Part shown: positions 11,801-53,183 of the stretch, in pieces
Layout of the letters: every line of letters begins with the position of its first letter
Position numbering within the stretch: the first letter of the stretch is position 1
Assembly (NCBI GenBank): GCA_016214785.1
Contig: JACRNV010000001.1
Span: 240-64,239, forward strand
DNA length: 64,000 bases
Direction of reading: 5' to 3'
Origin: Methanobacteriota archaeon
GTDB lineage: Archaea > Thermoplasmatota > Thermoplasmata > SG8-5 > JACRNV01
Translations under genes and position numbers: made by a program
The notes under the pieces: generated by a model
The model's input: the letters and a program-made list of their open reading frames with translations, nothing else
Database searches by the model: none
Told to the model about the DNA's origin: nothing

Positions 11801-14800
11801 TGAGCGCCGATGCGAGCAAGCAGTTCGGCGCCGCGGGCTACGACCTCTACGACAACCTGATCGACATAACGCCGGTTTGGGCCGTGAACGGCGGGGGGGC
11901 GGTCAACGCCACGGGGTACTTCGCGGCGCACGCCGTCGGAACATGGACGATTTTCGCTAACGACAGCGGCGTCTCGGGGCAGGCGACTATCACCGTCCTG
12001 CACGGCGCCGCCGTATCCATCGACGTCACGCCGGCCACGGCGACGATAACGGCGGACGACACGGTCCTCTATTCGGCCACGGCCTACGACGCCGACGGCA
12101 ATGCATGGGAGGTCACGACCGGCACGGTCTTCACGCACAACGACCCGAAGGGGGGCATGGTCCAGAACCTCTATTCGGCGGGCCAGGTCGGGACATGGAC
12201 GGTCACCGGCGTGTATTCCGGCCTCACGGATTTCGCCAGCGTCACGGTCAACCCGGGCGCCGCGGCGCTGCTGGTCATGGACTCGCCCTCGGCGGTCGAT
12301 GCGGGCGCGGGCTTCAGCGTCTCGGTCACCGTCTTCGACGGCGACGGCAACGTCAAGACCGACTACCTTGGCACTGTGGGCCTCGGCTCGACCGACCCGT
12401 ACCCAGCGACTCTGCCGGCGGACCACACATTCACGCTGCCGAACGCAGGCACATACTCCTTCACGAACCTCATTTTGTACACCAGGACATCGCAGAACGT
12501 AACCGCGCGGGACACGGCGGTACCGGCCCTGGCGGACACCGACGCGATAGCCGTGCGCGGACCGGCCATCCAGCCCGTCAAGCTCGTCCCGGAGAAGGCC
12601 GAGCCGGGCAACGTCCTGCTGTACAGGATATACTTCAACAACACGGGGGAGAACGCCGCGGCGAACGTGTGGCTGAACGACACGCTTCCGTCGGGAGTTA
12701 CGTTCATCGACGCCTCCGACGGTGGAAGCTACGCCGCTGGCGTCGTTCGCTGGGTCTTTTCAGGCATCCTTCCGGGGATATGGTCAGTTACCGCGAACGT
12801 GAGCGCGAACGCGGGCCTGGCCAACGGCGTGCTCCTGACGAACTGGGCCTATTGCAACCACACCCTGGCCTCGGGCGCGAGGATGCCCGAGACGAGGGCC
12901 AACGCGACGACGAGGATATTCTACCTCCCGCTCATTGACGCGTCCAAGACAGTCGAGCGCATATTCAAGGACATCGTGGTGGACCCGGACCAGTGGGGGC
13001 AGTGCACGGTCGCGAACACGATATCGTACAAGGTGAACATCACGAACCTCCAGAGCATAACCGACTCGGTCGACATGGACAAGACCTCCAAGCTGGGCTG
13101 GCCAATCGCGCTGCTCAACACGGACTGGACCCCCCTCGCGGACACCAACGGGAACTCGTACCCCGACACGGGCAACCTGGCGCCGAGCGGGGGGATGAAT
13201 AGCATCATGGTCAACGTGACTGTGCCCTACAACGCCATCGTGGGCCAGGAGGACATCTCCTACATAATCGGCACGTCCTACAACGACGCCAACATCGTGG
13301 ACGTCGCGCAGATAAACACCACCGTCATACCGCGCGCGCCGGCCGACGTCGTCATGACGATAGACAACTCGGGCTCGATGGCCAACATCGAGGACCAGCA
13401 GAGATGGGTGCCGATGACTCTCGACATATCGTACTGGGCCGCGGGGTGGTCCCAACTGCAGGTAAGGCTGTATTTCACGTCCAACGCTGCGGGCGTCAGC
13501 GGTGGCTGGACCATAGACGACTTCGAGGTGCAGGGGAACAACAACGACACGAGGTTCTTCGACAATTTCGACGGCGTGCCGCGCGGCTGGTCGAACCTCG
13601 TGGCCGACCAATGGGAAACCGGCACGCCCATCGGAGGGACGGACCCGCCGTCGGCGCCGTCCGTACCGAACGTCCTGGGCACGGACGTCCTCAGCGGAGT
13701 AGACGGGAACAACCAGTACCCGAACAACGCCCTCTGGGACGCGATATCGCCTGCGATTGACGTCTCCACCGACACGACGGTGAAGGTGAAGTTCCAATCG
13801 TGGATCGCGGTCGCGGACACGGCCGACCTGTGCTACGTCGAGATCAGGAACGGCGCCACGGCATGGACGAGGATATGGGGATGCTCGAAGATAGAGGTGC
13901 TGAAGTACTGCGCCAGGGACTTCGTCGCCGGGCTCGACCCGAGCGACCGCGTGGCGGTGTACAGCTTCGGCGGCACGGGGAACGAGCAGGTCATACAGAG
14001 CCAGGCGTTCCTGACTATGACCCCCGCGAACAAGGCCACGACTCTGGCCTTGCTCGCTACGTTCACGGCGAACCAGAACACCCCTATATGGGACACCATC
14101 GGGACATCCGTCAGCTACGCGATGACTGGCGGCTGGGACTCCTTCACGCCGCCGCACACGCCAGTGGTCGTGGCCATGACGGACGGCGACGACTGGGGCA
14201 CGGGCGGCAGGGAGACAGGCAGCGAAACGTACGCGCCGGGGGCGCCGTCGAGGGCCACGGCCGGCAACGTGATACGCACGTGGGAGACGAACCCCAGGTC
14301 GGACGGCAACGTATGGGGCAGCCCGGTGAGGACGTACGGCAGCATCTACAGGCTAACGACGGCGGCGCCCCAGGCATGGTCGACCTTCGCGCTCACCGGG
14401 GATGAAGCGACGAGGACCGGCCTGCTGAACGCGCCCTGCGCGGTATTCACCATAGGGCTGGGCTGCAACCCGCAGGGGAGCAACTCGAGCGCCGCCGGCT
14501 ACATCAGCCAGACAGCGCTCGTCGTAGGCGCTCCGGCGGCAGTGAGCACTACTTCGTACGCCTACAACTTCACTTCGGAATACGACCTGAGGCAGGTGGC
14601 CAACACCTCCAAGAACGGCAGCTACTATTTCGCGCCGACGAGCAGCCAGCTGGACGCGATTTACATTCAGATAGCAGCCGCCGTGGCGCAGCTCGGGGGG
14701 ACGGCCGCCGCCGGGGCAAAGGGCACGATATCGGCCGGGGACAGCCTGATGTACAAGCTGTACTACAACAACACGGGCATCGGCGTCGCAGCGGACGTGT

Positions 14801-17800
14801 GGGTCAACGACACCCTGCCGAGCTGCCTCCAGCTCGTGGCCTCCAACGCCACCTGGTCGTTCGTAAACGGCCAGTACTGCTGGCACTTCCTGAACGTGGC
14901 GCCGGGGACGCACTGGTTCTGGATAGAGGTGAAGATAGACAACACCGTGGTGGACAGCCAGAACGTCACCAACGCCGTCTACGTGAATTGCACCGACGCC
15001 GAGGGCAACGCCCTGCCAGGCAGCAACGATACGGCCAGCGTCGACATAGACGAGCCGATACTGTCGGTGGAAAAGGTCGCCAACAGGACCTCCGCCCCGC
15101 CCGGAGGGAGGATCAACTACACCATCTGGTACAACAACACGGGCTCGAGCATGGCACTCTATGTATGGATAAACGACACCTTCGATCCGAACACCGTTTA
15201 CATATCAGACTCCGCGCCGGTCCCGCCCGTGATCAACGGCAACAAGTATTCGTGGAAGGTCTTCAGGGTCATGCCCGGGAGCAACTACTTCAACATCACT
15301 GTGCAGGTCATAAACGGGGCCGCGGGCGGCACCATCATCGGCAACCTGGCGGCCGCCGAGTACACGAACAGCAACAACGTCAAGCACAGCGGCGCCTCGA
15401 ACTCGAACGTTGTGAACACGTCGGTCATCAACACGAGGATCGACGTCGCGAAGACAGTCGATAAGCCGATATCGGACCCGGGCAAGTCCCTCACCTACAC
15501 GATATACTTCAACAACACGGGGACGGACGTCGCCAACAACGTCTGGATAAACGAAACGCTGCCGCTCGATGTGACCTATGTAGCGCAGACCACGGCCTCC
15601 AACGCCACGCACACCCTCGTCAGCTGGGGCGTTAGCGGTCGCTACCTCTGGTTCAACTTCAGCAACGTCCAGCCCGGTAACCACTGGTTCACTATTATTG
15701 CCACGGTCAATTCGGGCACGCCCGACGGGACGTGGATGGACAACTACGTCAACCTGAACTACACGGACGACGTCGGCTTCTGCCTGCCGTACTCGAGCGC
15801 CACCGCCCTCTCGGTCTGCGGCGTCCTCAACGTGACGAAGACGAGCGACCTGACGGTCATACCTTCGACCGGGACGACGGTCATCAGGCTCACCATCCAG
15901 GTCAAGAACTGCCACCCGACGTACGTCATCAACAACGCGAAGGCGAACGACACGCTGCCTCCGGGCATCACGTTCGCCGGGAACGTCGCGGCCTCGAAGG
16001 GCTCGTGGTCGTGGAACGGGACCGTCCTGAACTGGAGCGTCGGCAGCCTCCTGCCGCTCGAGGCGGCGACGATATCGTTCGACGTGTCGATAACGCCCAC
16101 GGGCGTGGGGACGTACCCGATAAACTACGGCGCGTTCGCTAACGGGACGACGGACACGGGCTACCTAGAGAACGCGACCTCCCTGGCTCTCAACGTTACC
16201 GCGCGCAACGCGCCCATCCTCGACTTCTCGCTCTGGCCGTCGTCGGTGATATCTAAATCCGTCGGCTCGTTCTCGCTCAACGTCACGAACATCGGGACGA
16301 CCGGCGGCATGTTCTACAACGCGAGCAACGACGCCATAGAGGTCAGGATTCCGAGCGCCTGGGGGGCGCCCTCGGGCATGTCCGGGCCAGCGAGCTGGGA
16401 ATACCAGTGGAACGGCACTACCCGGATGCTGACGTTCTATTACAACGGCACCCTTTACTACAACTGGGCGTCGGGCACGACGCTCGCGTTCAACTTCGGC
16501 CTCCAGGCGCCCGCGACGCAGAACCACGACGGCTTCCTAACGAACGGAAGCATCCATGATTCCATAGGGACGAAGTACGGCTTCAGCAAGACGCTCTACG
16601 TGGACTCGGTCATCGGCCCGCTTGACCACATCGTCGTCTCCCCCAGCCCGGTATCGGTCCCCGTCGGCGGGACGCAGGCCTTCTCGGCAGCCGCCTACGA
16701 CGCGTATAACAACCAGATAACAGCCGCGACGTTCACGTGGGGCACGAACATGGGCTCCGTGAACGCCACAGGCTTCTTCACGGCGGGAACGTCGGCCGGC
16801 ACGGGTTTCGTGAGCGCGACCTCGGGCTCGGTCACGGGCTCGGCGACGGTGCAGGTCACGGCGGGCCCGGTCCATCACATAACCGTTTCCCCCTCGCCGG
16901 TCTCGGTCGTTGTCGGCGGAACCCAGGCCTTCACGGCGACGGCTTTCGACGTATACGACAATCCCGTCTCGGGCGCGGCCTTCACGTGGGCCACCGACGT
17001 CGGCACGATAAACGCCGCCGGCTCATTCACCGCGCGGAATGCGACGGGCTCGGGCATAGTCAACGCGACCTGCGGCTCTGTAGTCGGCAATGCCTCAGTG
17101 ACACTCATCCCGGCCGCGGTCTATCGTATCGTCGTGACGCCGAACCCGGCCACGGTAGTCGTCGGGGCGGGGCAGCAATTCGCTGCAGTCGCGTACGACG
17201 TCTACAACAACTCGATACCGGGCGTGAGCTACGCCTGGACAACCAGCGTGGGCTCTGTCAACGCGACCGGTTTCTTCACGGCACAGAACGCGCCCGGCGC
17301 CGGCACGGTCACGGCGGCGAGCGGGCCCGTTTCCAACTACACGGACGTCAGCGTCGTTGCGGGCCCGCTCGACCACATCATCGTCACTCCCGATCCTGCT
17401 ACGGTAACCGTGGGGCAGACGAGGCCCTTCGCGGCCGTCGCGTACGATGTTTACAACAACGCCCTTTCAGGCGTCGGTTTCGCGTGGAGCACGAACATGG
17501 GATCGATAGACTCTGCGGGGCTTCTCATAGCCCAGACCACGCCCGGCTCCGGCTACGTCAGCGCGAAGAACGGGAGCGTCTATGGCAATGCGACGGTGAA
17601 CGTCGTAGCCGGCGCGCTCGACCACATCGTCGTCACCCCCGACTCGGTCTCGGTAGTCGTTGGCACGACGCAGCAATTCAACGCGGTAGCGTACGACGCC
17701 TACAACAACCAATTAACGGGCGTGGGATTCGCGTGGAGCACCAATGTCGGCTCCATCGATGCGACCGGACTGCTGACCGCGCGCACAACCCCCGGCAGCG

Positions 17801-20800
17801 GGCAGGTCACGGCTGCGAACGGCACGAAGAGCGACTTCGCGACGGTCGATGTTATCGTCGGCGCGATAGACCGCATTTCCGTGTCCCCCAACCCGGCGAC
17901 AGTTGTCGTCGGAAGGACGAAGGCGTTCACGGGGACGGCCCACGACATCTACAACAACACGATACCGGGCGTCGTCTTCACCTGGACGACGAATGTCGGG
18001 ACCATCGACCCTTACGGTGTGCTGACGGCCCAGACCATGCCGGGCAACGGCACGGTCACCGCTACGAACGGATCCGTCACCGGCTCCGCCTCCGTCAGCG
18101 TCGTGATCGGACCAGCCAGCAGGATAGAGGTCACCCCGAGCTCGGCCACCGTCGTGATAGGGGACACGCGCCAGTTCGCCGCCCAGGCCTTCGACGCGTA
18201 CGACAACCCCATACCTAACGCCACGTTCATCTGGACAACCAACGTGGGGATCGTGAATTCTGCGGGATTGTTCACGGCCCAGACCGTGCCGGCGAACGGC
18301 ACGGTGAGCGCCAGGGTCGGCTCCGTGACTGGCTCTGCCAGCGTGGAGGTGACAATCGGCCCGGTCCATCACATTATCGTGTTGCCAAACCCTGCCTCGG
18401 TCGCGGTCGGCGGGACGGTGTTATTCTCGGCTGCGGCGTACGACGCGTACAACAACCCGATTCCGGGTGTGGCATTCGCCTGGTCCACGAACGTCGGTTC
18501 GATAGACTCCTTCGGTCTCCTGACGGCGCAGATGGTTCCGGGGCTCGGCACGGTGAGCGCGTCGAACGGGTCGGTCGTGGGGGCCGCGAGCGTCGAGATA
18601 GTCGTCGGCGGCATCTACTACGTCACGATCAGCCCGTCGTTCGCCGATGTGGAGGTTGGCGAAGCCCTGCTCTTCGTCGCCACGGCGTACGACTATTACG
18701 ACAACGTCGTGCCCGGTGCGGTCTTCACATGGGCGGCGGACGTCGGCTCCGTCGACGCGTCCGGGCTCTTCGTGGCCCAGACCGTTCCAGGCTCGGGCTA
18801 TGTGACGGCAACGAACGGCACCCAGAGCGCGTCCGCGGCGGTCAACGTCACGCACGGCCCGCTCGACCGCATCGCGGTTTCGCCGGACCCGGTAACGGTC
18901 CCAGTGGGGGCCGCGCAGGCGTTCTCAGCGACCGCGTTCGACGAGTACGGCAACGCGATACCGGGCGTTTCCTACGTATGGACGACCAACGTGGGCACTA
19001 TCGACTCGACCGGCGCGTTCACGGCCAGGACAACGCCAGGGACGGGGTACGTCACGGCGGCTAACGGCACCATCTCGGACTCCGCGACCGTCGAGGTCGT
19101 CGTCGGCCCCATCGACCACATTGTGGTCACTCCAGGGTCAATCTCGATAATCGTCGGCGGCAACCAGAGCTTCTCGGCCGTCGCGTACGACTCATACAAC
19201 AACTCGATACAGGGCGTATCCTTCGTGTGGTCGACGGACGTGGGCAGTGTAGACTCTGCAGGGCATTTCACAGCCCAGACGTTCCCCGGGACGGGCCTTG
19301 TGAACGCTTCGAACGGCACGTTCTCGGGCACGGCGAGCGTGGAGGTCGATCTCGGGCCGGTACATCATATATCCGTATCTCCGGACCCGGCGACCGTCAC
19401 TGTTGGAACGACCATGGCATTCAACGCGACCGCGTACGACCAGTACAACAACGTCATCCCGGGCGTGGACTTCCTCTGGACGACGAACGTGGGCGCGATA
19501 GACGCGGCGGGTACCCTTACAGCGCAGACGACGCCCAGGACAGGCATCGTGACCGCGAGGAACAACACGAGGACCTACTCGGCTTCTGTAACCGTCGTCC
19601 CCGGAGCGGTCCATCACATATCGGTCGCGCCGGGCACGGCGGTCGTCGTGGTGGGCGCCACGAGGTCGTTCAACGCCACCGCCTACGATGTATACAACAA
19701 TGCGATACCGGGCGTGGTCTTCAGCTGGTCCACGGACGTCGGTTCGATAGACCCTGCAGGCACTTTCACGGCTCAGACGACCCCCGCGACCGGCAATGTC
19801 GCGGCGTCGAACTCCTCTGTCACAGGGAGCGCGGGCGTCGATGTAATCGTCGGCCCGCCCCACCACATCGCCGTAACGCCGAACTCCACGGCGGTAACCG
19901 CTGGGCAGGGTAGGCAGTTCTCTGCCGTGGCGTACGACATCTACAACAACACCATTTTCGGCGCGACAATCCTCTGGAGCACCAACGTCGGCTCTATAAA
20001 CTCCACCGGCTACCTGACGGCACAGACGACATCGGCTACGGGCTGGGCCCACGCCACCTGCGGCAATGCTACGGGGAGCGCGGACGTCCAGGTCATCCCG
20101 GAAGCGCTCTATCGCATATCGGTCACACCGAGCCCAGCCACCGTCGTAGTCGGCCAGGCGCAGCAGTTCAACGCCACGGGTTACGATTTTTACAACAACG
20201 CGATACCTGGCATGGCCTTCGCATGGAGCACCAACGTCGGCACGATAGACGCGAACGGCTCCTTCACGGCCAGGATTACTCCGGGAATCGGGACGGTGAC
20301 GGCTCAAAACGGGACAGTCAGCAAGAGCGTGAACGTCACCGTGGCCATCGGCGGAATCGACCACATCGTGGTCGTGCCCGACCCGCTAACCATTACGGTG
20401 GGGGCATCGCAGCAGTTCATCGCAGTGGCCTACGACGCATACAACAATGTCCTGCCGGGCGCGACCTTCGGCTGGGCGACCAACGTCGGGACGATAAATG
20501 CCACTGGATACTACACGGCGCAAATCGTGCCGGGCGCGGGATTCGTCACGGCAACGAACGGCACCGTTAGTAAAACGGTCACAGTAACCGTGGTTCACGG
20601 GCCGCTCGACCACATAACCGTCATGCCGACCCCGCTCTCGATAACGGTCGGCGGGGCGCAGGACTTCACGGCGACGGCCTACGACGCATACAGCAATGCC
20701 ATATCAGGCGTCGGGTTCGCGTGGTCCACCGACGTCGGCACCGTCGATGTGGCCGGGCACTTCACTGCAAGCACCATCCCGGGAATAGGCACCGTCACGG

Positions 20801-23800
20801 CGACCAACGGGTCCGTGTCGGGCTCCGCCGCAGTCACCGTCCTGGTAGGCTCGATTGTCAGGATATCGGTCGTTCCCAACTCCGTTGCCGTGACCGTGGG
20901 CTCGACGCTCGCGTTCACGGCGATCGCGTTCGACAGCTTCAACAACGCGATTTCGGGCGTGGAATTCGTCTGGGCTACTGACGTTGGCTCAATAAGTGCC
21001 GGCGGCCAGTTCACCGCCCAGCTCGCGCCTGGCGCGGGCACCGTCACGGCGAGCAACGGGAGCGTGACCGGGACTTCGAACGTCACCGTTGTCGTCGGCA
21101 GCATCTACTACATATCCATCAGCCCGCTCCTGACATCCTTGAAGGTCGGGGAGAGCAGGCAGTTCACGGCCACGGCCTACGACTTCTACAACAACGTCGT
21201 TCCTGGCGTGTCGTTCGCATGGACTACCGACGTGGGGTCGATAAGCCCCACGGGCCTATTCACGGCGCAGACCGCGCCAGGCTCCGGGACTGTCACGGCC
21301 ACGAACGGCTCGGTCCACAACCACGCAATCGTGGACGTCCTGGCGGGGGACCTGCACCACATAGCGGTCTCTCCGAGCCCCGTCTCCATCGTCGTGGGCG
21401 GCAGCCAGCAGTTCACGGCGGTCGCATACGACGCCTACGGCAACGCATTGCCCGCTGTGGCCTTTGCATGGGCCAGCGACATGGGCTCGATAGACTCGGC
21501 GGGCCTGCTGGCGGCGCGCACGACCACTGGGTCCGGGACGGTCACGGCCTCCAACGGGACGGTAAGCGGCAGCGCTAACGTGACTCTCACCCCGGGCCCG
21601 CTCCATCACGTCATCGTAACACCTGACCCGGTCACCGTCATAATCAATGGGCTTGTCCAGTTCGTCGCGACGGCATACGACTCCTACAACAACACGATAC
21701 CCGTCGTCGCGTTCGCTTGGTCGACCACGGCCGGCGCCATCGATTCGGCGGGCAATCTCGTCGCTCAGGCGTTCCCTGGCTCGGGGACGGTAACGGCCTC
21801 GAACGGCTCGTTCTCGGACTCTGCCAGCGTCGAGGTCGTCAACGTGCCGATTGACCATATCGTCGTCGTGCCGGACCCGGCCAATGTAACGGTGGGCACA
21901 GCCCAGGCATTCACGGCGATAGCGTTCGACGCGCTCAACAACCCCATCTCCGGCGTCCTATTCGTGTGGACGACGAACGTCGGGGCCATTGACCAGCAGG
22001 GGAGGCTGGCGGCGCAGACGACGCCAGCGACGGGCTTTGTGATGGCCAGGAACGGCACGCTTACCTATTCAACCACGGTGAACGTCGTGCCCGGGGCGGT
22101 CTGCCGCGTCTCGATCAGCCCGGCCAGCGCGAATGTCACGGTCGGTTCCTCTATAGCGTTTACGGCCACTGCCTACGATGTGTATGACAACGCCGTCCCA
22201 GGCGCGACCTTTGCCTGGGCGACGAACGCGGGCACTGTCACCGGCATTGGGATATTCACCGCACAGACGACGCCGGGCGCGGGCACGGTGACGGCGTCTA
22301 ACGGGACCGCCAGCGCGACGGCGAACGTGCAGGTTGCCATAGGCCCCGTGGACCACATAGTCGTCACGCCGGACCCGGCGACGATAACGGTCGGGGCGTT
22401 CTTGCAGTTCTCAGCGACGGCCTACGATGCTTACAATAACCTCGTGGTCGGCGCGGCCTTCTCGTGGAGCACGAACGTCGGGCTCGTCAATGCGACGGGG
22501 TACCTGACTGCGCAGACCGCGCCGGCCGCGGGATGGGTGCGCGCGACGGCCAGCTCCGTCGTTGGCAGCGCCAGCGTCCAGGTCGCTGTCGGCCCGCTGC
22601 ACCACATCACCGTCACTCCTAGCTCGGTCAATGTCATAGTCGGCGGCTCCCAGCAATTCAACGCCGTGGCGTACGACATCTACGGCAACGTCATCGCAGG
22701 CGCGGGCTTCACGTGGAGCACAAACGTCGGGACCGTGGACCCCACGGGGCTGCTGGCCGCGCAATCGACCCCTGGCAGCGGCTTTGTCGGGGCGGCGAAC
22801 GGTTCCATCGTAGGTTCCGCGGCCGTCACCGTGGTCAGCGTCGCCATAGACCACATCCTCGTCGCGCCAAGCCCGGCCACCGTAGTCGTGGGCGCGTCGC
22901 AGGCATTCACGGCGGTCGCCTACGACGCCTCGAACAACCCGATAGGGGGCGTCATTTTCACGTGGGCCACGAACGTCGGCGCCATAAATGCGGCAGGGCT
23001 ATTCACCGCGCAGGGGGCGCCAGGGAACGGCACGGTAACGGCCACGAATGGCTCGGTGACAGGCTCGGCGCCCGTCAGCGTTGTGAGCGTGGCAATCGAC
23101 CATATCGTCGTATCTCCAAACCCGGCAACGGTAGCCGTTGGAGGCACGCAGTCATTCACCGCCACGGCCTACGACGCGCTCGGGAACGCCATCCCGGGAG
23201 TGCTATATGCGTGGACGACCGGTGTCGGTGCAGTAGATCAGCTAGGCTTCTTCACTGCCCAGACGCACCCGGGAATTGGGACGGTGACGGCGACGAACGG
23301 GTCGGTTAGCGCATCGGCCTACGTCAACGTCGTGCCGGGGACGCTCGATCACATAGTGATAGTTCCCGACCCGGCATCAGTGACGGCAGGTGGAACCAAA
23401 GCCTTCATAGCTGTAGCGTTCGATGCCTTCAACAATGTCATCCCTGGCGTCGGGTTCTCATGGTCGGCAAACATCGGCACGATAGACGCAGCGGGAGTGC
23501 TATCTGCCCAGACTGCCGCCGCCACTGGAACGGTGACGGCGTCTAACGGCACGGTCGGCTGGTCCGCCATCGTCAGCGTGATTCCGGGGCCCGTGAGCTA
23601 TATCATGGTAACGCCGAACCCCGCATCGGTCGTCGTGGGCGGGACGCAGGCCTTCGCCGCGTCGGCCTACGACGCCTACGGCAACGCGATATTCGGCATT
23701 TCATTCTCGTGGACGACCGACGTCGGGGCCATCAACTCCGGCGGGCTCTTCACCGCTCAGGCAGCGCCGGGCAGCGGCACCGTCACGGCGGCCAACGGGA

Positions 23801-28875: not shown

Positions 28876-31800
28876 TTAGAGGGTGCGGGCCAGCTCTTCG
28901 GACTTACCAGCCTCGAGAAGCCTTCCGGCCTTCCTGAACAAGGCCGCGCTCTCCGCCGCCGTCGCGCGCCCCTTCCCTGCCTCGCCCTGGGCGGCGAGGG
29001 CCCTGGCGCTGGCCCTAAGGAGGGAAGCGCGCGAAAGCTCGGCCTCGATGCCTTTCTGTCCGGCATTCAGGGCCAGCTCCGAATCGAGAATGCCATGCGC
29101 CCGCGCGTGGTCGCCAGATTTCAGCGCCTCACAGGCCTTGAGCCTGGCCACGGTAGCCTGGAAGTCCGGCCTCCCGATCTTTGCCGAGAGGGCATCGAGT
29201 TCGCGAAACGCCTCGGTGACATCCGGGACGGCAGAGAGATCGACCAGTTCTGCAAGCGAGCTGAACTTCTCCACTATAAGGTCGCACCTGCGCGCTATCT
29301 CGAGCGACATGTTGTAGTGCTCGATCGCGCCGTCGCGCTCCCCATTCGCCGAAAGGATGTTGCCTAGCATGAGGTGGGCGATTGAAACGCCCATGTCGTA
29401 GCCAAGTGGCTCCCACTCCCCCAGGCTCTTGAGGGCGCAGTCCTCGGCCTCGCCGAGGTTGCCGAGGTTGATGTGCACTATCGCCAGGTCGGAGTACGAC
29501 CAGCCGATTCCCAGCTTGCCGTCGTAGCCTTGCCGCAAGGCCAGCGCCTCCGATTGCGTGGCGAGCGCCTCCTCGTTCCTGCCGGTCATCGACAGGGCGT
29601 AGCCCAGGTTCCCCAAGGCCATGGCCATCATAGGATCGTTCCCGAGCCTGCGGCCGATGGCGAGGGCGCTGCGGTGGCACTCTGTGGCCCTCTCGGGCAT
29701 GTTGAAGTCCGCGCTCGCGTTCCCGAGGTTGATGTATATGGAGAACATCCCGAAGACGTCCCCCATCCTTTCCCGGAGGGCGAGGGCCTTCTCCTGCATC
29801 TTGATGGCGGAGGCGAACTCGCCGTGGGAGTGCCGCATCGAGCCCATCTGCTCGTAAGCCGAGGCCAGGATTCGCGCGTCCCCGAGCCCCTCGGCGATTT
29901 CGATGGCCTTAATTACGAGCGGGACGGCGTCGGCATAGCCGCCCAGGCCATCGCGGACTTGCCCCAGGGTAATATGCACCTTCGCCACGGTACGCCTATC
30001 GCTCACGGCGGAGAGCTTCTCCAGCGCCAGAGAGGCGAGCTCGGAAGCCTCCTTCGGGTCGGTGTCGTGGACGTCAAGCGCCTGACGGGAGTAGAATTCC
30101 GCGGCCGCCTCGGGGCCTGCGCGCGGGGCCATGACGGAGCCGAGCCCGAGGAGCCTGGAGACTTCCTTTCTGTCCCTCAGATGGAAGGCGATCTCGTCCA
30201 TCTTCAGGATTATCCTGATGTAGCCGTCCGGGTCGGAGGAGTGCGCGGCCAGCAGCGCTCCGTACTCGGCCATCGCAAGCGGGGGCTCGCCGAGGCTCTT
30301 GTAGCAGTCGCCGATGCGCTCGCGCAGGACGCTCTCTGTCCCGGGCGGGACGGCTCCGGCCTTCGGGAGGAAGCCCAGAGCAGACTTGTAAAGTTCGAGC
30401 GCCTGCTCGGCGGCGAAGCTCCCCTCGGCCTTTTCGCCGGACCGGAAGGAGTATTCGAAGGCCTTGCGGTGCTCGGAGGTGCGCGAGAAGTGCCTGGCCA
30501 GCTCGTAGAGTACGTCGTCAGTGGCGCCCGCGTGCCTGGCCTCATAGTACTCGCCCAGGGATTTGTGGTGCGCGGACTTCCACCTCCCGGATATGCCGCG
30601 GTAGACCACGTCCTGGAAGAGCGCGTGGGAGAACCGCCCCCTCCCCTCGTCGCCGAGGACGATGCCCGCCTCCCTGAGCTTCGCCAGCGCCCGGGAGGCG
30701 CTCTTCAGGGTAGCATTCGACAGCGCGGCGTCGATGTCGAACTCGCGGCCCAGGCAAGACGCATACTCGGCCATGGACATGGCGTCCGGCTCGAGCGCCG
30801 AGAGGCGCGCCTGAACGACGGCCTCGACGGAGTCGGGGATGGCGCAGTCCTCGCGCACGAGGCTGTAGGCCCCGGCCTTAAAGGAGATGCTCCCCTCGTC
30901 GCGCATCCGGCGCAGCGTCTCGACGATGAAGAAGGGGTTGCCGCCTCCCTGCTCCGAGAGGCGGGACAGGAACTCTGCCGGGAAGTCGTTGGGCTCGAAA
31001 AGGGAGCGCGCTATGCCCGCGGCGGCCGGCGTGTCGAGCCTCCCGAGCCTGAGCTCGGCGATGCCCAGCCCGGCGATGGACGCCCGACCCTCCTCCGGGC
31101 GGCGCGTGGCCACGATGAGCGCGCCCAGCCCCGCTGCGTTCCTGGCGACGTAGCCTAGCACGAAAAGCGAGGATTCGTCGGCCCAGTGGACGTCCTCGAG
31201 CACTAACAGGAGCGGCCTCTCCCGGGCGAGGCCGGCGACGAGCTTCTGCGCGCCCTCGGCTATCCGCGCGCGCTCCCCTTCCAGGCTCACCCCCTCGTGT
31301 TCCCTGCGCACGGCGAACCTGCGCTCCAGGAGGGGGATGAGCGCCCCCTTGACCGGCGAGAGGTAGCCGTCCCGCCCGTTCCATTTCTCGATCACCGCGC
31401 CGAATTTCGATTCGAGGTCGTGCGCGGCGAGCCTCAGGGCGTGGCGCATCTCCGGATGCTCTGCCTCTTTCACGACGGCAGCGAGGAAGAGGCGCTCCTC
31501 GTGCTCGATTAGAATCTTCATATCCCCGTACTCGAGCCTGCCGAGCGAGCCCTTGCCCGAGCCGCCCTGGAACGAATCGCGGACGAAGCCCTGGACGGCG
31601 GAGAGCATGCCGGCGAGAGCGCCCGCGCCCTCGTCCCTGGAACCGGGCGAGACCGCGGCAATGAGCTGGCCGGCGGGGTCGATGGCGAAGACCTTCGAGA
31701 AGGACGCGTGCTCCCCGGTATCGAAGAGCGCCTCGCCGCCGTGCCCTGCGAACGCCGACGATATGAGGAGGAAGGGATGCCCAGAGTCGGCGGCCGCGGC

Positions 31801-31995
31801 GCCCATAAGAACGCGCGCGCCTCGTTCAAGCGCATAGGCGCGGAGCTCGCCGACGAGCGTCGACTTGCCTATGCCGGCTTCGCCGGAAACGATGATGGAC
31901 GAGCCCTTGCCGCCGACGGCGTCGTCCAGCATCTTCTTGAGGCTCTGGAGCTCCGATTCCCTGCCGACGAGCCTGGGCGCGGACACGATTTGCAT
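28876..31995 (-). CDS. AAA_16 (STAND-type) P-loop NTPase with C-terminal TPR array and a Roadblock/LC7-like insertion
   Basis: RLVGRESELQSL..GKGSSIIVSGEAGIGKSTL (Walker A), PLLLVLEDVHWADESS (Walker B), and about 600 aa of TPR-like helical repeats. Start placed at Met29 (31995); the alternative start is 32079. Confidence 0.8.
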   Translation of the reverse strand: MQIVSAPRLVGRESELQSLKKMLDDAVGGKGSSIIVSGEAGIGKSTLVGELRAYALERGARVLMGAAAADSGHPFLLISSAFAGHGGEALFDTGEHASFSKVFAIDPAGQLIAAVSPGSRDEGAGALAGMLSAVQGFVRDSFQGGSGKGSLGRLEYGDMKILIEHEERLFLAAVVKEAEHPEMRHALRLAAHDLESKFGAVIEKWNGRDGYLSPVKGALIPLLERRFAVRREHEGVSLEGERARIAEGAQKLVAGLARERPLLLVLEDVHWADESSLFVLGYVARNAAGLGALIVATRRPEEGRASIAGLGIAELRLGRLDTPAAAGIARSLFEPNDFPAEFLSRLSEQGGGNPFFIVETLRRMRDEGSISFKAGAYSLVREDCAIPDSVEAVVQARLSALEPDAMSMAEYASCLGREFDIDAALSNATLKSASRALAKLREAGIVLGDEGRGRFSHALFQDVVYRGISGRWKSAHHKSLGEYYEARHAGATDDVLYELARHFSRTSEHRKAFEYSFRSGEKAEGSFAAEQALELYKSALGFLPKAGAVPPGTESVLRERIGDCYKSLGEPPLAMAEYGALLAAHSSDPDGYIRIILKMDEIAFHLRDRKEVSRLLGLGSVMAPRAGPEAAAEFYSRQALDVHDTDPKEASELASLALEKLSAVSDRRTVAKVHITLGQVRDGLGGYADAVPLVIKAIEIAEGLGDARILASAYEQMGSMRHSHGEFASAIKMQEKALALRERMGDVFGMFSIYINLGNASADFNMPERATECHRSALAIGRRLGNDPMMAMALGNLGYALSMTGRNEEALATQSEALALRQGYDGKLGIGWSYSDLAIVHINLGNLGEAEDCALKSLGEWEPLGYDMGVSIAHLMLGNILSANGERDGAIEHYNMSLEIARRCDLIVEKFSSLAELVDLSAVPDVTEAFRELDALSAKIGRPDFQATVARLKACEALKSGDHARAHGILDSELALNAGQKGIEAELSRASLLRASARALAAQGEAGKGRATAAESAALFRKAGRLLEAGKSEELARTL

Positions 31996-32196
31996 ATAGG
32001 ATAGATAGATAATAAGCGTTTTCGCCAACTGACCACATTGCGGCCACCTCTTCTCAGTTCCCTTATCCCCTCTGACCACCCTGTAAGGTCATCGGAGGTG
32101 TCACAGTTGCTCGAATACGTGTACCTGGCAATGGAGGCGACGAGGGCGGTCAGGAAGAGCAAGAACGTCCCAGTCATCTAAAACCCTTACATGATT

Positions 32197-46128: not shown

Positions 46129-46497
46129 ATGTCTAGCGTTGGGGATATCAAGAACGAGCTCAAAAAGCTCAGCACGGAGCACAAGATAGAGATTTCAGCG
46201 ATAGTCTCGCGCAGCGGCGTGCCAATCGCGTGGAACGTCCCCGACGAGTCGATGGTCGAGACATTCGCCACTCTGTCCGCGACCATAGTCGGCGCTGCCG
46301 AGGTCGTCTACACCGGATTGGGCAAGGCCCCCCCGAAAAGAATAATGATAGACTCGGACGGCGGGACGTTCATAGCGACCCCGATAGGGACGAAAGCGCT
46401 GCTCGTCGGCATAAGCAGCAACAGGGACCGGGCATCGCTCTCTTCCGGCCTGGACGCGGTGGCCAACGCCGTGAAGGGGGTGCTGAGCAGTGAATAG
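46129..46497 (+). CDS. Roadblock/LC7 (MglB-like) family protein
   Basis: 122 aa. IEISAIVSRSGVPIAWNVPDESMVETFATLSATIVGAAEVVYTGLG...RIMIDSDGGTFIATPIGTKALLVGISS fits the Robl_LC7 alpha-beta-alpha pattern. Confidence 0.7.
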   Translation: MSSVGDIKNELKKLSTEHKIEISAIVSRSGVPIAWNVPDESMVETFATLSATIVGAAEVVYTGLGKAPPKRIMIDSDGGTFIATPIGTKALLVGISSNRDRASLSSGLDAVANAVKGVLSSE

Positions 46498-48004
46498 CCT
46501 GGAGTACATCCCCGAGGAGGTCCGCGAGTTCTTTTCGAAGGAGGGGGGGCGCTCCCTGCTCGTCGGCGGCATGCCCGGCACTGGCAAGACCACGTTCGCC
46601 CTGCAGCTCCTCGAGGGCCTGACGGCGCCGGAGCGTGGCCTCTATCTCACTACCAGGGTGTCGGACGAGTCGCTCTACAAGCAGTTCCCGTGGCTCAAGG
46701 ACAAGGAGATGAAGGCCCGCATCGTCGATTCGAGCAGGATGCTCCTCGACGCGCTGACCCCGCCGGAGGAGGAGCAGAAGCCGGCCGACCCGAACAAGAC
46801 GCGCATCGTCGCCTCCAGCAAGGACTTCCTCCAGTCAATCGGCGACAAGGGCCTCTCGCCGCCGTCCAGGGTCGACAGGACCAGGCTGCGCATCCTGACC
46901 GAGCGCATGAGGATCCCGGAGGTGGAGCGCATCTACGACAGCATAGAGACAATCCTCCCGGAGAAGCCCACGCTGGTCATAGACAGCGTCGAGGGGATCA
47001 CCGGCAAGTACGGCGTCGACCAGGAGGATTTCATATTCACCCTGCAGAAGGACCTTGCCGAGCACTCGAACACGAACATCGTCTTCGTGACCGAGAAGTC
47101 GGAGCCAGACCCGGTCGAGTTCCTCGTAGACGGCGTCATACGCTTCAGGAACGAGGTGTTCGAGGACAAGCGCGTGCGCCACATGACGATAATGAAGCTC
47201 AGGGCGACGGAGATAAAGCAGCCGGCCTACCTCGTAACACTCAAGGACGGGCGGTTCCGCAGCTTCAGGCCGTTCGGCCCCGTCTACAAACCAGGGCGCT
47301 GGACGCCATTCCCGGACACGGACACGCACTACAGCACGGGAATTCCGGACCTAGACTCGCTCCTAGGCGGCGGGTACGCGAAGGGGAGCTACAACGTCAT
47401 CGAGGTCGACCTCAACGTTCCCGATGACGAATACCAGCTCGTGCTGCGCCCGATACTCCTCAACTTCCTCATGCACGAGCGCGGCATCGTCGCCGTCCTG
47501 AACGGCGGCTCGCACTCCCAGGCCATGAAGGAGGACCTGGCGAGGTTCATGCCCGAGGAGCAGTTCGACAGGCTCGTCAGGGTCGCGGACTACTTCATCA
47601 CCCAGACCAACCTCCCGTACGTCATGGCGCTCGGCCGGCGCGAGGAGGCCCTGCGCATATGGCGCGCGAACCAGGAGTTCCTGCGCGGGAAGGATAACAA
47701 GCCCATCATGGACTACACGGGCTTCGACACGCTCGAGTACCTGCAGGGCGGCGAGGTCGCCATCAAGGGGCTGCTCGAGGCCGTCTCGCACATCAAGATA
47801 TCCAACGATATAGGCGTGGGCGTCCTGAAGCCCGGCCTGAAGTCGGCGCAGGAGATAGTGAACATGGCCGACACGTACCTGAGGGTCACGGACATAGACC
47901 GCAGGCCCTGCATCTACGGGCTCAAGCCGAAGACCATCCTCTACGCGCTGGTGCCCGACGAAGAAAAGGGAATACCGCACGTCAAGCTCGAGCCTGTCGT
48001 TTGA
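46490..48004 (+). CDS. GvpD/KaiC-like two-domain RecA-superfamily ATPase (second domain has a degenerate P-loop)
   Basis: GTG start overlapping the Roadblock stop by 8 nt. Domain 1: LLVGGMPGTGKTTFALQLL (Walker A) and PTLVIDSVEG (Walker B). Domain 2: STGIPDLDSLLGGGYAKGSYNVIEVDLNVPDDEY, a KaiC-like entry motif without GKT. Confidence 0.7.
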   Translation: MNSLEYIPEEVREFFSKEGGRSLLVGGMPGTGKTTFALQLLEGLTAPERGLYLTTRVSDESLYKQFPWLKDKEMKARIVDSSRMLLDALTPPEEEQKPADPNKTRIVASSKDFLQSIGDKGLSPPSRVDRTRLRILTERMRIPEVERIYDSIETILPEKPTLVIDSVEGITGKYGVDQEDFIFTLQKDLAEHSNTNIVFVTEKSEPDPVEFLVDGVIRFRNEVFEDKRVRHMTIMKLRATEIKQPAYLVTLKDGRFRSFRPFGPVYKPGRWTPFPDTDTHYSTGIPDLDSLLGGGYAKGSYNVIEVDLNVPDDEYQLVLRPILLNFLMHERGIVAVLNGGSHSQAMKEDLARFMPEEQFDRLVRVADYFITQTNLPYVMALGRREEALRIWRANQEFLRGKDNKPIMDYTGFDTLEYLQGGEVAIKGLLEAVSHIKISNDIGVGVLKPGLKSAQEIVNMADTYLRVTDIDRRPCIYGLKPKTILYALVPDEEKGIPHVKLEPVV

Positions 48005-50474
48005 GCTCTTCGATATGTTCCTCGGCCAGCTTCGCCTCTCCGAGCGAGCCTATTGCCTTGTAATGGTCCAGGGCCATCATGAAGTTCTGCAGCGCGCACG
48101 CCGCGTCCCCCATGGCCTTGTAGGTGAGGCCGAGCTCGTAGTAGGACAGCGCAAGGTCGTACGGGATGTTCAGCATCTCCATGATGACGATGCCCTTGTT
48201 CAGGTTCTCGATGGACCTGTCCCACTCCTTCTTGAGCCTGTAGATGATGCCGAAGTTCTTGAAGACGCCGTTCATGCCTATCTTGTCGTCCGTCGATTCG
48301 CATATCTTGAGGCTGCGGGCGCAATACTCCTCGGCCCTTTCCAGCTCGCCCTTCATGGCCAGAGCCTCGGCCGCGTTGAAGAGCGACCAGGCTATGAAGT
48401 TCCTGTTCCCCAGCTTCTCGGAGGTTAGGCGGCACTTCTCGAACGCCTCGATTGCCTTGTCCCAGTTCCTCGTGTGCAGGTAAGAGTCGCCGAGGTTGTT
48501 GTAGGCGCGCATTATCTCGACGTGGTCGCCTATCTCATCGAGGTCCTTGATGCTCATGGTGTAGTATCCGACGGCCTTCTCCTGCTCGCTGCGCTGGTTG
48601 TAGACGTTGCCGAGGTCTATGTTCACGCGGGCGATGGCGTGCTTGTCCCCTATCTTGGTGGAGTGGGCGATGCTCTGGTTGTAGTGCTGGATGGCGTCGT
48701 CGACCTGGCCCCTGCGCCAGTGTATGTAGCCGAACCCCCTCTCGATGTCGGCGACGCCGGCGGTATCACCAGTCTGCTGGCATATGACCAGAGCCTCGGA
48801 ATAGAGCCTCTCCGAGTCGGAATACTCCGCGCGCTGCTTGTGCATGTCCGCGAGCTTGCGCAGCGACGCGGACATCATCTGCCTGTCCCCTTTCGACCTC
48901 GCGGCGTCGATGGCTTGGCGGAAGTGCGGCATTGCGGCATAGGGGTTGCCGAGGTCGTAGCACAGGTCGCCGCAGGCGATTGCCAGCCTGATGCTCTCGG
49001 CGGGCTTGTCGATCGCGCTGGACGGTTCGAGCTGCGACAGCAGCTTTAGGGCAGTGGCGTAGTAGTCGAGCGCTTCCTCCAGCGCCAGGAGCTTCTTCGC
49101 CTTGTCGCCGGCGGCGACGCTGTACTTGAAGGTCTTCGCCCCGTCCTTCCCGAGGTAGAAGTGCCTGGCCAGCGAGTAGACGACCTCCTCCAGCCTGCCG
49201 GTGTAGACGAGCTCCATGGCCTCGCCGACCTTCTTGTGCATGAGCCGCGCGCGCGACTTGCTCTGCCCCTCGTACATGCTGCTCGCGGTCTGCTTGTGGT
49301 CGAAGACATAAATCTCGTCCGAGGTCGACCTGTCCTCGCGGATGATTCCGACGGCCATGAGCTTGTCCAGGGAGTCCAGGAGGGTCTCGGAGTCCATCTC
49401 GGTGACCTTGTGGAGCACGTCGAAGTTGAACTGCGTGCCTATCACGGCCGCGTACATGAGGACCTTGCGGGTGTTGTCGTCCATGCGCGCTATCCTGCGG
49501 GCCGTGACGTCCTTGATGGTGCTCGGTATCCTGATCGTCGAGAGATCGACCCCGGCGTCCCAGACGTAGGAATCGGGCTTGATGACGCCCTCCTCTATGA
49601 GCGAGTGGAGCACCTCCTCGACGAAGAAAGGATTTCCCTCGCTCTCGTCGTAGAGCTTGCGCAGGAAGTGCTGGGGGATGTCCTCGATGCCGAGGATGGA
49701 CTTGACCAGCGCGCTCATGTCGTCGTTCCCGAGCCGCGCAAGGGTCATGGTCTCGTAGAGCCTCTCCTTGCTCATCTTCCTCTGCATATCGAGGAGCGGG
49801 TGCGAGCCGCCTGGGACGTCCCTTAGTTCCTCGGGCCTGTAGGCGCAGCATATCATCACGCGCGAGTTCCTAGTGTTCCTCGTGACATAGTGAAGGAGCT
49901 GCAGCGAGCCGGAGTCGGCCCACTGCAGGTCGTCTATGAAGAGCAAGACCGGCGACTCGTCCGCGATGCGGACGAGAATCTGGTTGAAGGTGTCGAACAT
50001 CCTGTCGCGCTCGGCCTGCACGCCCATGCCCGTTCCGGTGCGCTCGGCGAGCATCGATAGCCCGATGGGTATGCCGCCCTCGACGTTGTCCGGCGCCATG
50101 CGGCCGCCGCTGCGCGCCATCCCCGCGAGCCCGAGCGGAACGGAGCCGTAATCGAGCTCGTCGTCAACCTGCGACGCCGGCGGCCTGACGTAGCCCCTGA
50201 GCGCCTCGAAGAACGGCAGGTAAGGGTCGACGTCCTGCTGCGCGATGCACCTGCCAGTCAGGAACTTGAAACCCTTGGCGGAGGCGTGCCTGCCCGCCTC
50301 CGCGACGATGCGCGTCTTTCCGACGCCGGCCTCCCCCTCGACGAAAGTGAGACTGCCCTTGCCAGCGGCAGCGGCATCGACCCTCTCCTTGAGGAGCGCA
50401 AGCTCCTTGGTCCTGTCGATGAATTCCGCGGAGTGCTGAGCGGTCGTCTTTCCAATCCCCATCATGCAGATCAC
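47982..50474 (-). CDS. AAA_16 (STAND-type) P-loop NTPase with C-terminal TPR array
   Basis: FIDRTKELALLKERV..GKGSLTFVEGEAGVGKTRI (Walker A), PVLLFIDDLQWADSGS (Walker B), and a long TPR region. Its 3' end overlaps the convergent GvpD-like gene by 23 nt. Confidence 0.8.
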   Translation of the reverse strand: MICMMGIGKTTAQHSAEFIDRTKELALLKERVDAAAAGKGSLTFVEGEAGVGKTRIVAEAGRHASAKGFKFLTGRCIAQQDVDPYLPFFEALRGYVRPPASQVDDELDYGSVPLGLAGMARSGGRMAPDNVEGGIPIGLSMLAERTGTGMGVQAERDRMFDTFNQILVRIADESPVLLFIDDLQWADSGSLQLLHYVTRNTRNSRVMICCAYRPEELRDVPGGSHPLLDMQRKMSKERLYETMTLARLGNDDMSALVKSILGIEDIPQHFLRKLYDESEGNPFFVEEVLHSLIEEGVIKPDSYVWDAGVDLSTIRIPSTIKDVTARRIARMDDNTRKVLMYAAVIGTQFNFDVLHKVTEMDSETLLDSLDKLMAVGIIREDRSTSDEIYVFDHKQTASSMYEGQSKSRARLMHKKVGEAMELVYTGRLEEVVYSLARHFYLGKDGAKTFKYSVAAGDKAKKLLALEEALDYYATALKLLSQLEPSSAIDKPAESIRLAIACGDLCYDLGNPYAAMPHFRQAIDAARSKGDRQMMSASLRKLADMHKQRAEYSDSERLYSEALVICQQTGDTAGVADIERGFGYIHWRRGQVDDAIQHYNQSIAHSTKIGDKHAIARVNIDLGNVYNQRSEQEKAVGYYTMSIKDLDEIGDHVEIMRAYNNLGDSYLHTRNWDKAIEAFEKCRLTSEKLGNRNFIAWSLFNAAEALAMKGELERAEEYCARSLKICESTDDKIGMNGVFKNFGIIYRLKKEWDRSIENLNKGIVIMEMLNIPYDLALSYYELGLTYKAMGDAACALQNFMMALDHYKAIGSLGEAKLAEEHIEELKRQARA

Positions 50475-53044: not shown

Positions 53045-53183
53045 ACCGGTAAGCTGCACGTTTTGCTCCCAGTTCTTGTCCCGTATCACTTTATGTACAA
53101 TTTCGCGCGCGCGTTCGACCACAACTCTTTTATTCATAGTTCGCAGTGAGGTGGACAGCAGCATCTTGAGCGGAGGGGGTCAA

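Follow-up and report, generated by a model that had tools for sequence, protein, structure and literature searches.

A Longin-Topology Roadblock Module Predicted Between Walker A and Walker B of a Thermoplasmatota STAND ATPase

Introduction

Roadblock and longin domains are ancient platforms for the regulation of small GTPases, and the longin variant is seen as a hallmark of Asgard archaea and eukaryotes. In RuvBL1 and RuvBL2 (Pontin and Reptin), which are AAA+ ATPases, an additional domain separates Walker A from Walker B. Here we analyze a gene located at 28876-31995 on the reverse strand of a 64,000-nucleotide stretch of contig JACRNV010000001.1 from a Thermoplasmatota archaeon (the window; the contig is C48 in our numbering). 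Its product is a STAND (signal transduction ATPase with numerous domains) protein with a C-terminal TPR array, in which a module of the Roadblock/longin type is predicted between the two Walker motifs. Fold superfamily and ATPase class are both familiar; what is undescribed is the way they are arranged here, in a member of a large uncurated family. The original prediction, made from the sequence alone, did not recognise the arrangement as described, and our search of the full-text literature agrees with it: general work on Roadblock/longin domains and on Asgard archaea was found, and neither a Roadblock/longin domain inside a STAND or AAA_16 ATPase nor this module family in Thermoplasmatota was reported.

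Several described systems share some of these features. Like MglB and other Roadblock/LC7 proteins (PF03259), the insert has a predicted core of a five-stranded sheet and a central helix, stand-alone relatives of it pass the Pfam cut-off, and small GTPase genes are associated with the module family at large. Unlike them, it sits inside an ATPase domain instead of forming a free protein of ~120 amino acids (aa), and it has no Pfam match itself; the module-linked GTPases score as Ras/Roc, not MglA, and no GTPase gene adjoins the one analyzed here. Longin domains (VAMP7, Sec22b, Ykt6, AP sigma/mu, zeta-COP, TRAPPC1/4, Mon1-Ccz1, and 8yqg of Lokiarchaeota) have a strand and helix order identical to that predicted for the insert and are its best structural matches over the whole length, but the host here belongs to Thermoplasmatota and not to Asgard archaea or eukaryotes, and the context is an insertion into a STAND ATPase. 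With the AAA_16-TPR STAND proteins of the MalT, AfsR, and TOMM kinase/cyclase types, including a paralogue in the window (47982-50474, reverse strand), the protein has in common the Walker A and B motifs, the hhhhDDxxWxD pattern, the GNPFF motif, the helical region, and the C-terminal TPRs; it differs in having a 135-aa module where those proteins have a short linker, and in lacking an HTH, SARP, cyclase, or kinase effector. RuvBL1 and RuvBL2 also bear a whole domain between Walker A and Walker B, but their insert is an OB-fold, the ATPase belongs to a different clade, and the TM-scores reach only ~0.3; the likeness is one of architecture, and the inserts are not taken to be homologous. Finally, the Ragulator-Rag and TRAPP complexes and the Streptomyces conservon (CvnA-D) combine receptors, Roadblock/longin modules, and GTPases, as do the conserved neighbourhoods of the wider module family; none of them contains a STAND ATPase, and we claim a resemblance of logic only, not orthology.

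Results

The open reading frame (ORF) extends over 28876-32079 (reverse strand), and the likely start is the first ATG, at 31995, which gives a product of 1039 aa; gene call P0002 of the database differs only in its length of 1036 aa. On sequence grounds the product is assigned to the MalT/AfsR-type (Pfam AAA_16) STAND ATPases with a C-terminal TPR sensor. The AAA_16 match scores 72.2 bits (cut-off 32.6 bits) and is preceded by only 8 residues. Motif searches placed the Walker A P-loop GEAGIGKS at residues 38-45 (31861-31884) and a Walker B of the hhhhDDxxWxD form, LLLVLEDVHWAD, at residues 262-273 (31177-31212); G41, G43, and K44 of the former and D268 and W271 of the latter are invariant in a 36-sequence family alignment (A1). 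The second half of the NTPase and a helical/winged-helix region follow at residues 227 to ~520 (30436-31317), as delimited by a second AAA_16 stretch, by BLASTP against the paralogue, and by a partial NCBIfam match of residues 239-534 to the TOMM kinase/cyclase AAA_16 region; AfsR was matched in part as well. This part includes the GNPFF motif, which is typical of MalT/AfsR-type STAND proteins. The TPR array comes after the helical arm, at residues ~560-1008 (28972-30318): TPR_12 (89 bits), TPR_10, and TPR_1 exceed their Pfam cut-offs, and TPR_MalT (42.5 bits) falls slightly under its 45-bit cut-off. Pfam, NCBIfam, and PADLOC found no HTH, SARP, cyclase, kinase, nuclease, protease, or TIR effector domain in the protein.

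The distance between the Walker A lysine and the Walker B aspartate is 224 aa in this protein (K44 to D268) and 129 aa in the 830-aa AAA_16-TPR paralogue (K53 to D182), practically as in the original prediction (~224 and ~128 aa), which had placed an extra segment at 31324-31707. That segment, residues 97-224, proved to be the core of an insertion. AAA_16 matches the protein in two separate stretches, the first covering residues 8-82 (profile positions 1-73), and matches the paralogue in one. BLASTP aligned residues 9-85 with 18-95 of the paralogue and residues 231-304 with 145-218; residues 86-230 therefore face a Gly/Pro-rich linker of the paralogue. The insertion point is the loop between strand 2 and the helix preceding Walker B, and two flexible linkers flank the insert. 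Residues ~94-226 (31318-31716), about 135 aa, are an autonomous inserted domain. The paralogue's linker at the exact insertion site (residues 96-144, 49 aa; 50043-50189, reverse strand) is disordered-looking and may be either the ancestral loop or a scar of module loss.

The insert is the best-conserved stretch of the family. Residues 1-340 have about 2000 relatives, the best 120 of which cover 86-100% of the query and hence include the insert; all organism-named ones come from metagenome-assembled genomes (MAGs) of Thermoplasmata, Thermoplasmatota, or Methanobacteriota. Conserved motifs in alignment A1 include DADIFAGMLSAVQxFVxDSF and GLGRLEYGDMKILIEH. By element, conservation peaks in the central helix (3.15 bits per column; residues 124-142, 31570-31626), the motif of which, GMLxAVQxFVxDSF, is present in all 24 copies of the module found in the genome; strands 3 and 4 are also among the most conserved elements, and the C-terminal helices are the least conserved (1.6-1.8 bits).

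Structures were predicted with AlphaFold2 (AF2), as monomers, for residues 1-340 (mean predicted local distance difference test score, pLDDT, 82; predicted template modelling score, pTM, 0.58) and for the insert alone (mean pLDDT 82, pTM 0.77). In both models the order of elements is strand-strand-long helix-strand-strand-strand-helix-helix, and the linkers that join the insert to the ATPase core have low pLDDT in the larger one. A Foldseek search with the insert alone returned only folds of the Roadblock/longin superfamily, with probability 1.0: zeta-COP, Sec22b, the VAMP7 longin domain, AP sigma/mu, TRAPP and LAMTOR subunits, Rag C-terminal domains, and MglB. VIA, a fold search independent of Foldseek, was run over 48,161 chains, and its top five matches were longin domains (Z 13.3-12.0), led by VAMP7 (Z 13.3, model residues 5-141) and Sec22b (Z 12.9, residues 11-141); the Lokiarchaeota longin domain 8yqg had Z 10.7 over residues 7-141. 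The longin matches (Z 10-13.3) align ~120-130 residues with an rmsd of 2.4-3.2 A at 7-14% identity. Classic Roadblock proteins (MK-D1 Roadblock3, MglB, 3kye) score Z 9.2-9.6 over model residues 9-117 only.

The longin topology differs from that of Roadblock by the loss of the N-terminal helix and the gain of an extra C-terminal helix (PMC10933270). The predicted insert has no N-terminal helix and has two C-terminal ones, and its element order is therefore that of longin domains and not the helix-strand-strand-helix-strand-strand-strand order of Roadblock. Thus, according to the models, the insert folds as a member of the Roadblock/longin superfamily with longin topology. The AlphaFold model of the NTPase domain, suggested as a check together with the original prediction, bears out its proposal of a Roadblock/LC7-like fold at the level of the superfamily, as do Foldseek and VIA; the classic alpha-beta-beta-alpha-beta-beta-beta order is replaced by the longin variant.

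Since longin and Roadblock domains belong to the wider PAS/profilin-like class of alpha/beta sandwiches, in which ligand binding is common (PMC3521125), the module might be a sensor of small molecules or peptides of the PAS, GAF, or profilin kind that supplies a second input beside the TPR sensor. We consider this improbable. All of the 50 best VIA matches are longin, Roadblock, or related platform proteins, with no PAS or GAF ligand-binding domain among them, and per-element conservation places the conserved residues on a helix face and suggests no pocket-like set.

At the sequence level the insert itself is far from the curated models. Pfam searches with the insert (128 and 141 aa) gave nothing relevant and no Robl_LC7 match even at E-value limits of 1 to 5, so that the 23-bit gathering score of PF03259 was not reached, and NCBIfam gave no match. 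Among Protein Data Bank sequences, neither phmmer with the insert nor hmmsearch with the profile of 24 copies found anything significant (MglB at E 0.3 and TRAPPC1 at E 0.75 are suggestive at most). Curated longin models of Pfam came up below threshold and for a stand-alone paralogue only (Fuz_longin_1 E 0.006, Intu_longin_1 E 0.03). An Atlas feature search listed at rank 11 (score 0.88, no more than a lead) a cluster with the name Roadblock/LAMTOR2, in which Fuz_longin_1 occurs in 22% of the members.

The link to Roadblock is provided by stand-alone relatives. A profile (A3) was built from the 24 module copies that a converged jackhmmer search found in the six-frame ORFs of the window's genome. 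In sister genomes it detects small stand-alone proteins (~175 aa) that end in a zinc ribbon (E ~1e-41 to 1e-44). The same loci had come up independently with Pfam Robl_LC7, and six of these proteins (L074-L079), scanned directly, match that model at E 2e-6 to 2e-4. Two of the six lie above the 23-bit cut-off (27.9 and 25.5 bits) and the other four at 21.3-22.7 bits; all six align to profile positions 11-90, that is, without the first helix. The insert is thus connected to Roadblock/LC7 transitively, through proteins that match both Robl_LC7 and A3. Taken with the fold matches, this bridge makes the insert a divergent member of the Roadblock/LC7 lineage with the longin helix arrangement.

The window also encodes a stand-alone classic Roadblock/LC7 protein (122 aa; 46129-46497, forward strand; Robl_LC7 38.7 bits), whose strand-helix-strand layout the extra segment had been thought to mirror. 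An hhalign comparison of the insert family with a Roadblock alignment from relatives does pair the same strand 1-strand 2-helix segment, but weakly (probability 31%, P 5e-4), and jackhmmer from the insert did not recruit the 46129 protein, which belongs to a separate gene family. Its gene overlaps by 8 nt the start of a gene for a 504-aa GvpD/KaiC-like two-domain P-loop ATPase (the two genes together span 46129-48004, forward strand), and thus this Roadblock protein is paired with a RecA-type ATPase and not with a small GTPase.

The module is a large mobile domain family that is uncurated. Of the 24 copies in the 2.18-Mb genome, 15 are inside AAA_16-type STAND proteins, and the rest show various architectures. 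Two giant surface proteins encoded on contig C54, a 2522-aa CarboxypepD_reg/PKD protein and a 1722-aa Big_1/Invasin protein, end in the module, which in the former comes straight after a transmembrane helix and basic residues and in the latter also follows such a helix and residues. Elsewhere the module stands after a HisKA_7TM membrane domain (C2), between DUF835 and TPRs (C41), after an AAA_14/ATPase_2 domain (C32), together with zinc ribbons (C38, C42, C44), or behind N-termini without an assigned domain (C11, C35). All 20 relatives searched from the same order carry it, in 3-26 copies each, and across the phylum it was found in 29 of 151 sampled genomes (23 of 96 genera). A HMMER search over 1.84 billion representative proteins yielded 6380 module clusters (at 50% identity) with E<=1e-3 and 4541 with E<=1e-10, among them stand-alone proteins of 135-160 aa and giants with two or three copies. 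Pfam was blank over the module in all ten representatives tested.

Some of these architectures recur. In giant proteins of ~2100-2400 aa (P0123, P0134, P0136, and similar), two or three tandem modules lie in the middle of the protein, after CARDB-type domains and before a C-terminal DUF5915. The combination of DUF835 and the module is seen both at C41:5400-7172 (L015, with added TPRs) and in protein P0164; this pairing may help to assign a role to DUF835, an uncharacterised archaeal domain. On contig C20 four genes for STAND-TPR proteins with the module (1014-1117 aa) are arranged head to tail (9682-22755, reverse strand), and this array shows a recent tandem amplification of the family.

A STAND-TPR architecture, a large paralogous expansion, and such a tandem array would also be expected of antiviral STAND proteins, and one could regard the protein as an Avs-like defence sensor with the insert as its element for phage-protein recognition or its effector. 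Other data make this very improbable. PADLOC produced only generic TPR models and a weak mad8 match (E 3.6e-4) with no Avs model, Pfam detected neither a nuclease nor a protease or TIR effector, and the gene has housekeeping genes around it. Moreover, the occurrence of the family in all 20 relatives searched from the order is unlike that of patchy defence islands.

Within the AAA_16 proteins the module is far from universal. Besides the 15 AAA_16-type ORFs that contain it, the window's genome has two clear paralogues that do not, 47982-50474 in the window and C64:3876-6218. In a scan of one genome per prokaryotic species, full-length matches including the module came from Thermoplasmata-type MAGs only (L080-L087). 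The bacterial AAA_16 relatives found span query residues 9-302 in just ~150-200 aa, and hence the module is absent from them. Thus, the possibility that the insertion is common to all AAA_16 proteins, which had been named as an outcome that would refute the original prediction, does not hold. The two paralogues without the module group together (97/90) in a tree built from the ATPase parts; as judged from these sequences, one gain or one loss of the module would suffice, the unrooted tree with its long branches being compatible with either direction.

The site of the insertion invites an explanation confined to the protein itself, in which the module acts in cis as a lid or an autoinhibitory plug and, with no partner from outside, governs oligomerisation or the exchange of nucleotide. 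The site is topologically the same as that of RuvBL domain II, RuvBL1/2 are the best Foldseek matches of the whole 1-340 model (E ~5e-5, TM-score ~0.3), with longin domains next, and Roadblock/longin domains are NTPase regulators by ancestry (PMC3521125). However, the same module is found in many proteins that have no ATPase of any kind, and its conserved face must therefore serve a portable function. The flexible low-confidence linkers and the modest pTM of the model speak against fixed packing on the ATPase core, and the module-less paralogues manage with a short disordered-looking linker at the same site. A purely in-cis role is thus distinctly unlikely.

The module family is associated with Ras-like GTPases by genome content and by gene order. 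In the sample of 151 genomes from the phylum, 28 have both the module and Ras (E<=1e-15), one has the module only, two have Ras only, and 120 have neither, and the copy numbers of the two are correlated (rho 0.66); because of the kinship of these genomes, the Fisher P exaggerates the strength of the association. The window's genome contains 11 strong Ras-family genes (E<=1e-28), mostly in tandem pairs, and a weaker match (E 1.2e-8) that adjoins a classic Roadblock gene on contig C26. To our knowledge, some 11 Ras-family genes are an unusual number for a non-Asgard archaeon. Single Rab-like genes have been described in a Thermoplasmatales archaeon and in Aciduliprofundum (Surkont and Pereira-Leal, PMC4915359).

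Ras genes of this genome were located at C5:15730-17357, C19:17735-19150, C39:12260-13126 and 17040-17672, C54:17430-18744, and C67:117654-119790. The pairs consist of a long and a short member, and the long one has a conserved C-terminal extension of ~104 aa without a Pfam match. This extension was considered as a Rag-like Roadblock domain and rejected: it looks helical by eye and is not recruited by the module profile.

Gene order was analyzed in five well-assembled relatives with a radius of 10 kb, at which about 10% of genes are expected to be near Ras by chance; module genes were classified by the length of the open frame. Of 51 Ras genes, 25 lie within 10 kb of a module gene. Conversely, Ras is found within this distance of 9 of 12 giant module genes (>1130 aa) and 6 of 31 small or middle-sized ones, that is, of 15 of 43 non-STAND module genes (binomial P 7e-6, ignoring kinship), whereas only 4 of 53 module genes of STAND size (900-1130 aa) are so placed (P 0.8, likewise ignoring kinship); one of these four, a 1084-aa frame, really carries the module at its C-terminus. 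Most of the Ras-near non-STAND genes are immediate neighbours, with gaps of only ~100-300 nt for several small or middle-sized ones. In the window's genome, on contig C54, a Ras pair (271 and 152 aa) lies directly upstream of the 1722-aa gene that ends in the module and has the same orientation.

This pair belongs to a co-oriented cluster of seven genes on one strand (C54:11892-31045; L005, L006, L020). The cluster starts with the 2522-aa surface protein with its transmembrane helix and module tail, followed by an 897-aa NosD/beta-helix protein, aspartate dehydrogenase, a 217-aa unknown protein, the two Ras-like proteins, and the 1722-aa Big_1/Invasin protein.

STAND copies with Ras neighbours were observed in two genomes from two other families of the phylum, in each of which a gene for an AAA_16 protein with the module and TPRs is divergent from a gene for a 335-aa TPR-Ras fusion, with gaps of 70 nt (L160:1234-4983; G029:C60) and 158 nt (L161:1-3868; G050:C122). 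Thus, gene adjacency of the MglA-MglB type exists for non-STAND copies and for STAND copies in G029 and G050, but not for the gene analyzed here.

The distribution of the module over receptors, small proteins, and ATPases could also mean that it is only a homotypic adaptor. In that case the copy in the STAND ATPase would pair with copies on receptor tails or zinc-ribbon proteins and so recruit the ATPase to activated receptors, and the GTPases would not be its direct partners. Death-fold and TIR domains are analogous homotypic recruiters. The same genome does have the module at the end of two giant surface proteins, after the transmembrane helix, at the end of a HisKA_7TM protein, and in small soluble proteins; in all architectures conservation is highest in the central helix and strand 3, through which Roadblock proteins dimerise; and the STAND copies of the window's order are not beside Ras genes. 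But the receptor-tail copies themselves are flanked by Ras genes, so that the GTPases belong to the network, and the STAND genes paired with TPR-Ras genes in the two other families point in the same direction. Moreover, no STAND gene of this genome was seen to adjoin a gene for a module-tailed receptor. We regard a function as adaptor only as rather unlikely.

The original prediction had mentioned the tail-to-tail position of the gene, 60 nt from a giant ORF (5866-28815, forward strand; 7649 aa). The 60-nt gap is real; a general link of the STAND genes with giant ORFs is not. The giant neighbour lacks the module and terminates in a transmembrane helix followed by a short basic tail; ORFs of at least 1300 aa number 44 in this genome; and among 14 STAND genes checked, just 2 lie next to one of them. 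The proximity therefore looks incidental. By our estimate these 44 ORFs make up roughly 15% of the coding capacity of the genome, and a second giant ORF of the window (53076-63998, forward strand; >3641 aa) extends past its edge. The genes that flank the STAND gene opposite the giant ORF encode a 4Fe-4S protein, an M32 carboxypeptidase, and an HD-domain protein.

Discussion

We propose that the module is a dimerising element of the STAND ATPase for GTPase docking or output, and assign this reading a probability of roughly 0.5. It is favoured because conservation is concentrated in the central helix and strands 3 and 4 and because no effector domain is present elsewhere in the protein. In MglA-MglB and in longin platforms it is the helix face of the dimer that holds the GTPase. 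The module, carried on flexible linkers, would pair with a second copy through its conserved face of the central helix and strand 3, the central-helix region being the dimerisation region of Roadblock proteins (PMC10933270). The second copy might belong to a neighbouring protomer of the ATP-driven oligomer, or be offered in trans by receptor tails or small zinc-ribbon proteins. The resulting two-module platform would bind and regulate the co-occurring Ras-like GTPases. In this way the input from the TPR ligand sensor and the ATP switch would either be passed on to the cell's Ras-like GTPases or be subject to gating by them.

Several observations weigh against this proposal. STAND-type copies in the window's own order are near Ras genes at the background rate, and contig C48 itself contains no Ras- or MglA-like gene. 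The counts of module and Ras co-occurrence ignore the kinship of genomes and could be explained by lineages that are richer in signalling. The insert reaches Robl_LC7 transitively, and four of the six proteins in between are marginal matches. With this pTM and the low-pLDDT linkers, it is uncertain how the module is oriented towards the ATP site, and from models that are monomers, binding, dimerisation, and a catalytic effect can only be inferred. Finally, Roadblock and longin domains also act without GTPases, as dynein LC7 and the longin domains of SNAREs do.

A broader and more tentative picture, which we think possible though doubtful, is that Thermoplasmatota, outside the Asgard archaea, run a so far undescribed signalling network on a single Roadblock-type module of longin topology. 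In giant surface proteins and 7TM receptors the module would form the cytoplasmic tail, with pairs of Ras-like GTPases at its side, while ATP-driven oligomerisation of the effector-less STAND ATPases would assemble or dismantle the two-module GTPase platform, making the STAND cores a relay from an ATP to a GTP switch. If true, the network would be a prokaryotic counterpart of platforms of the Ragulator/TRAPP type, and the module would be a living intermediate between the Roadblock and longin folds.

In summary, the family represents a large branch of the superfamily with predicted longin topology in another archaeal phylum, tied to expanded Ras-like GTPases and surface receptors. Its combination of Roadblock sequence affinity with the strand and helix order of longin domains bears on the origin of longin from Roadblock. 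For STAND-TPR proteins that lack an effector the module is a candidate output, and the arrangement hints at a connection, so far undescribed, between two types of molecular switch; it offers a tractable case in which to study how ATP and GTP switches communicate. About 6,400 protein clusters that are now labelled 'TPR protein' or 'hypothetical' could gain an annotation from recognition of this module.

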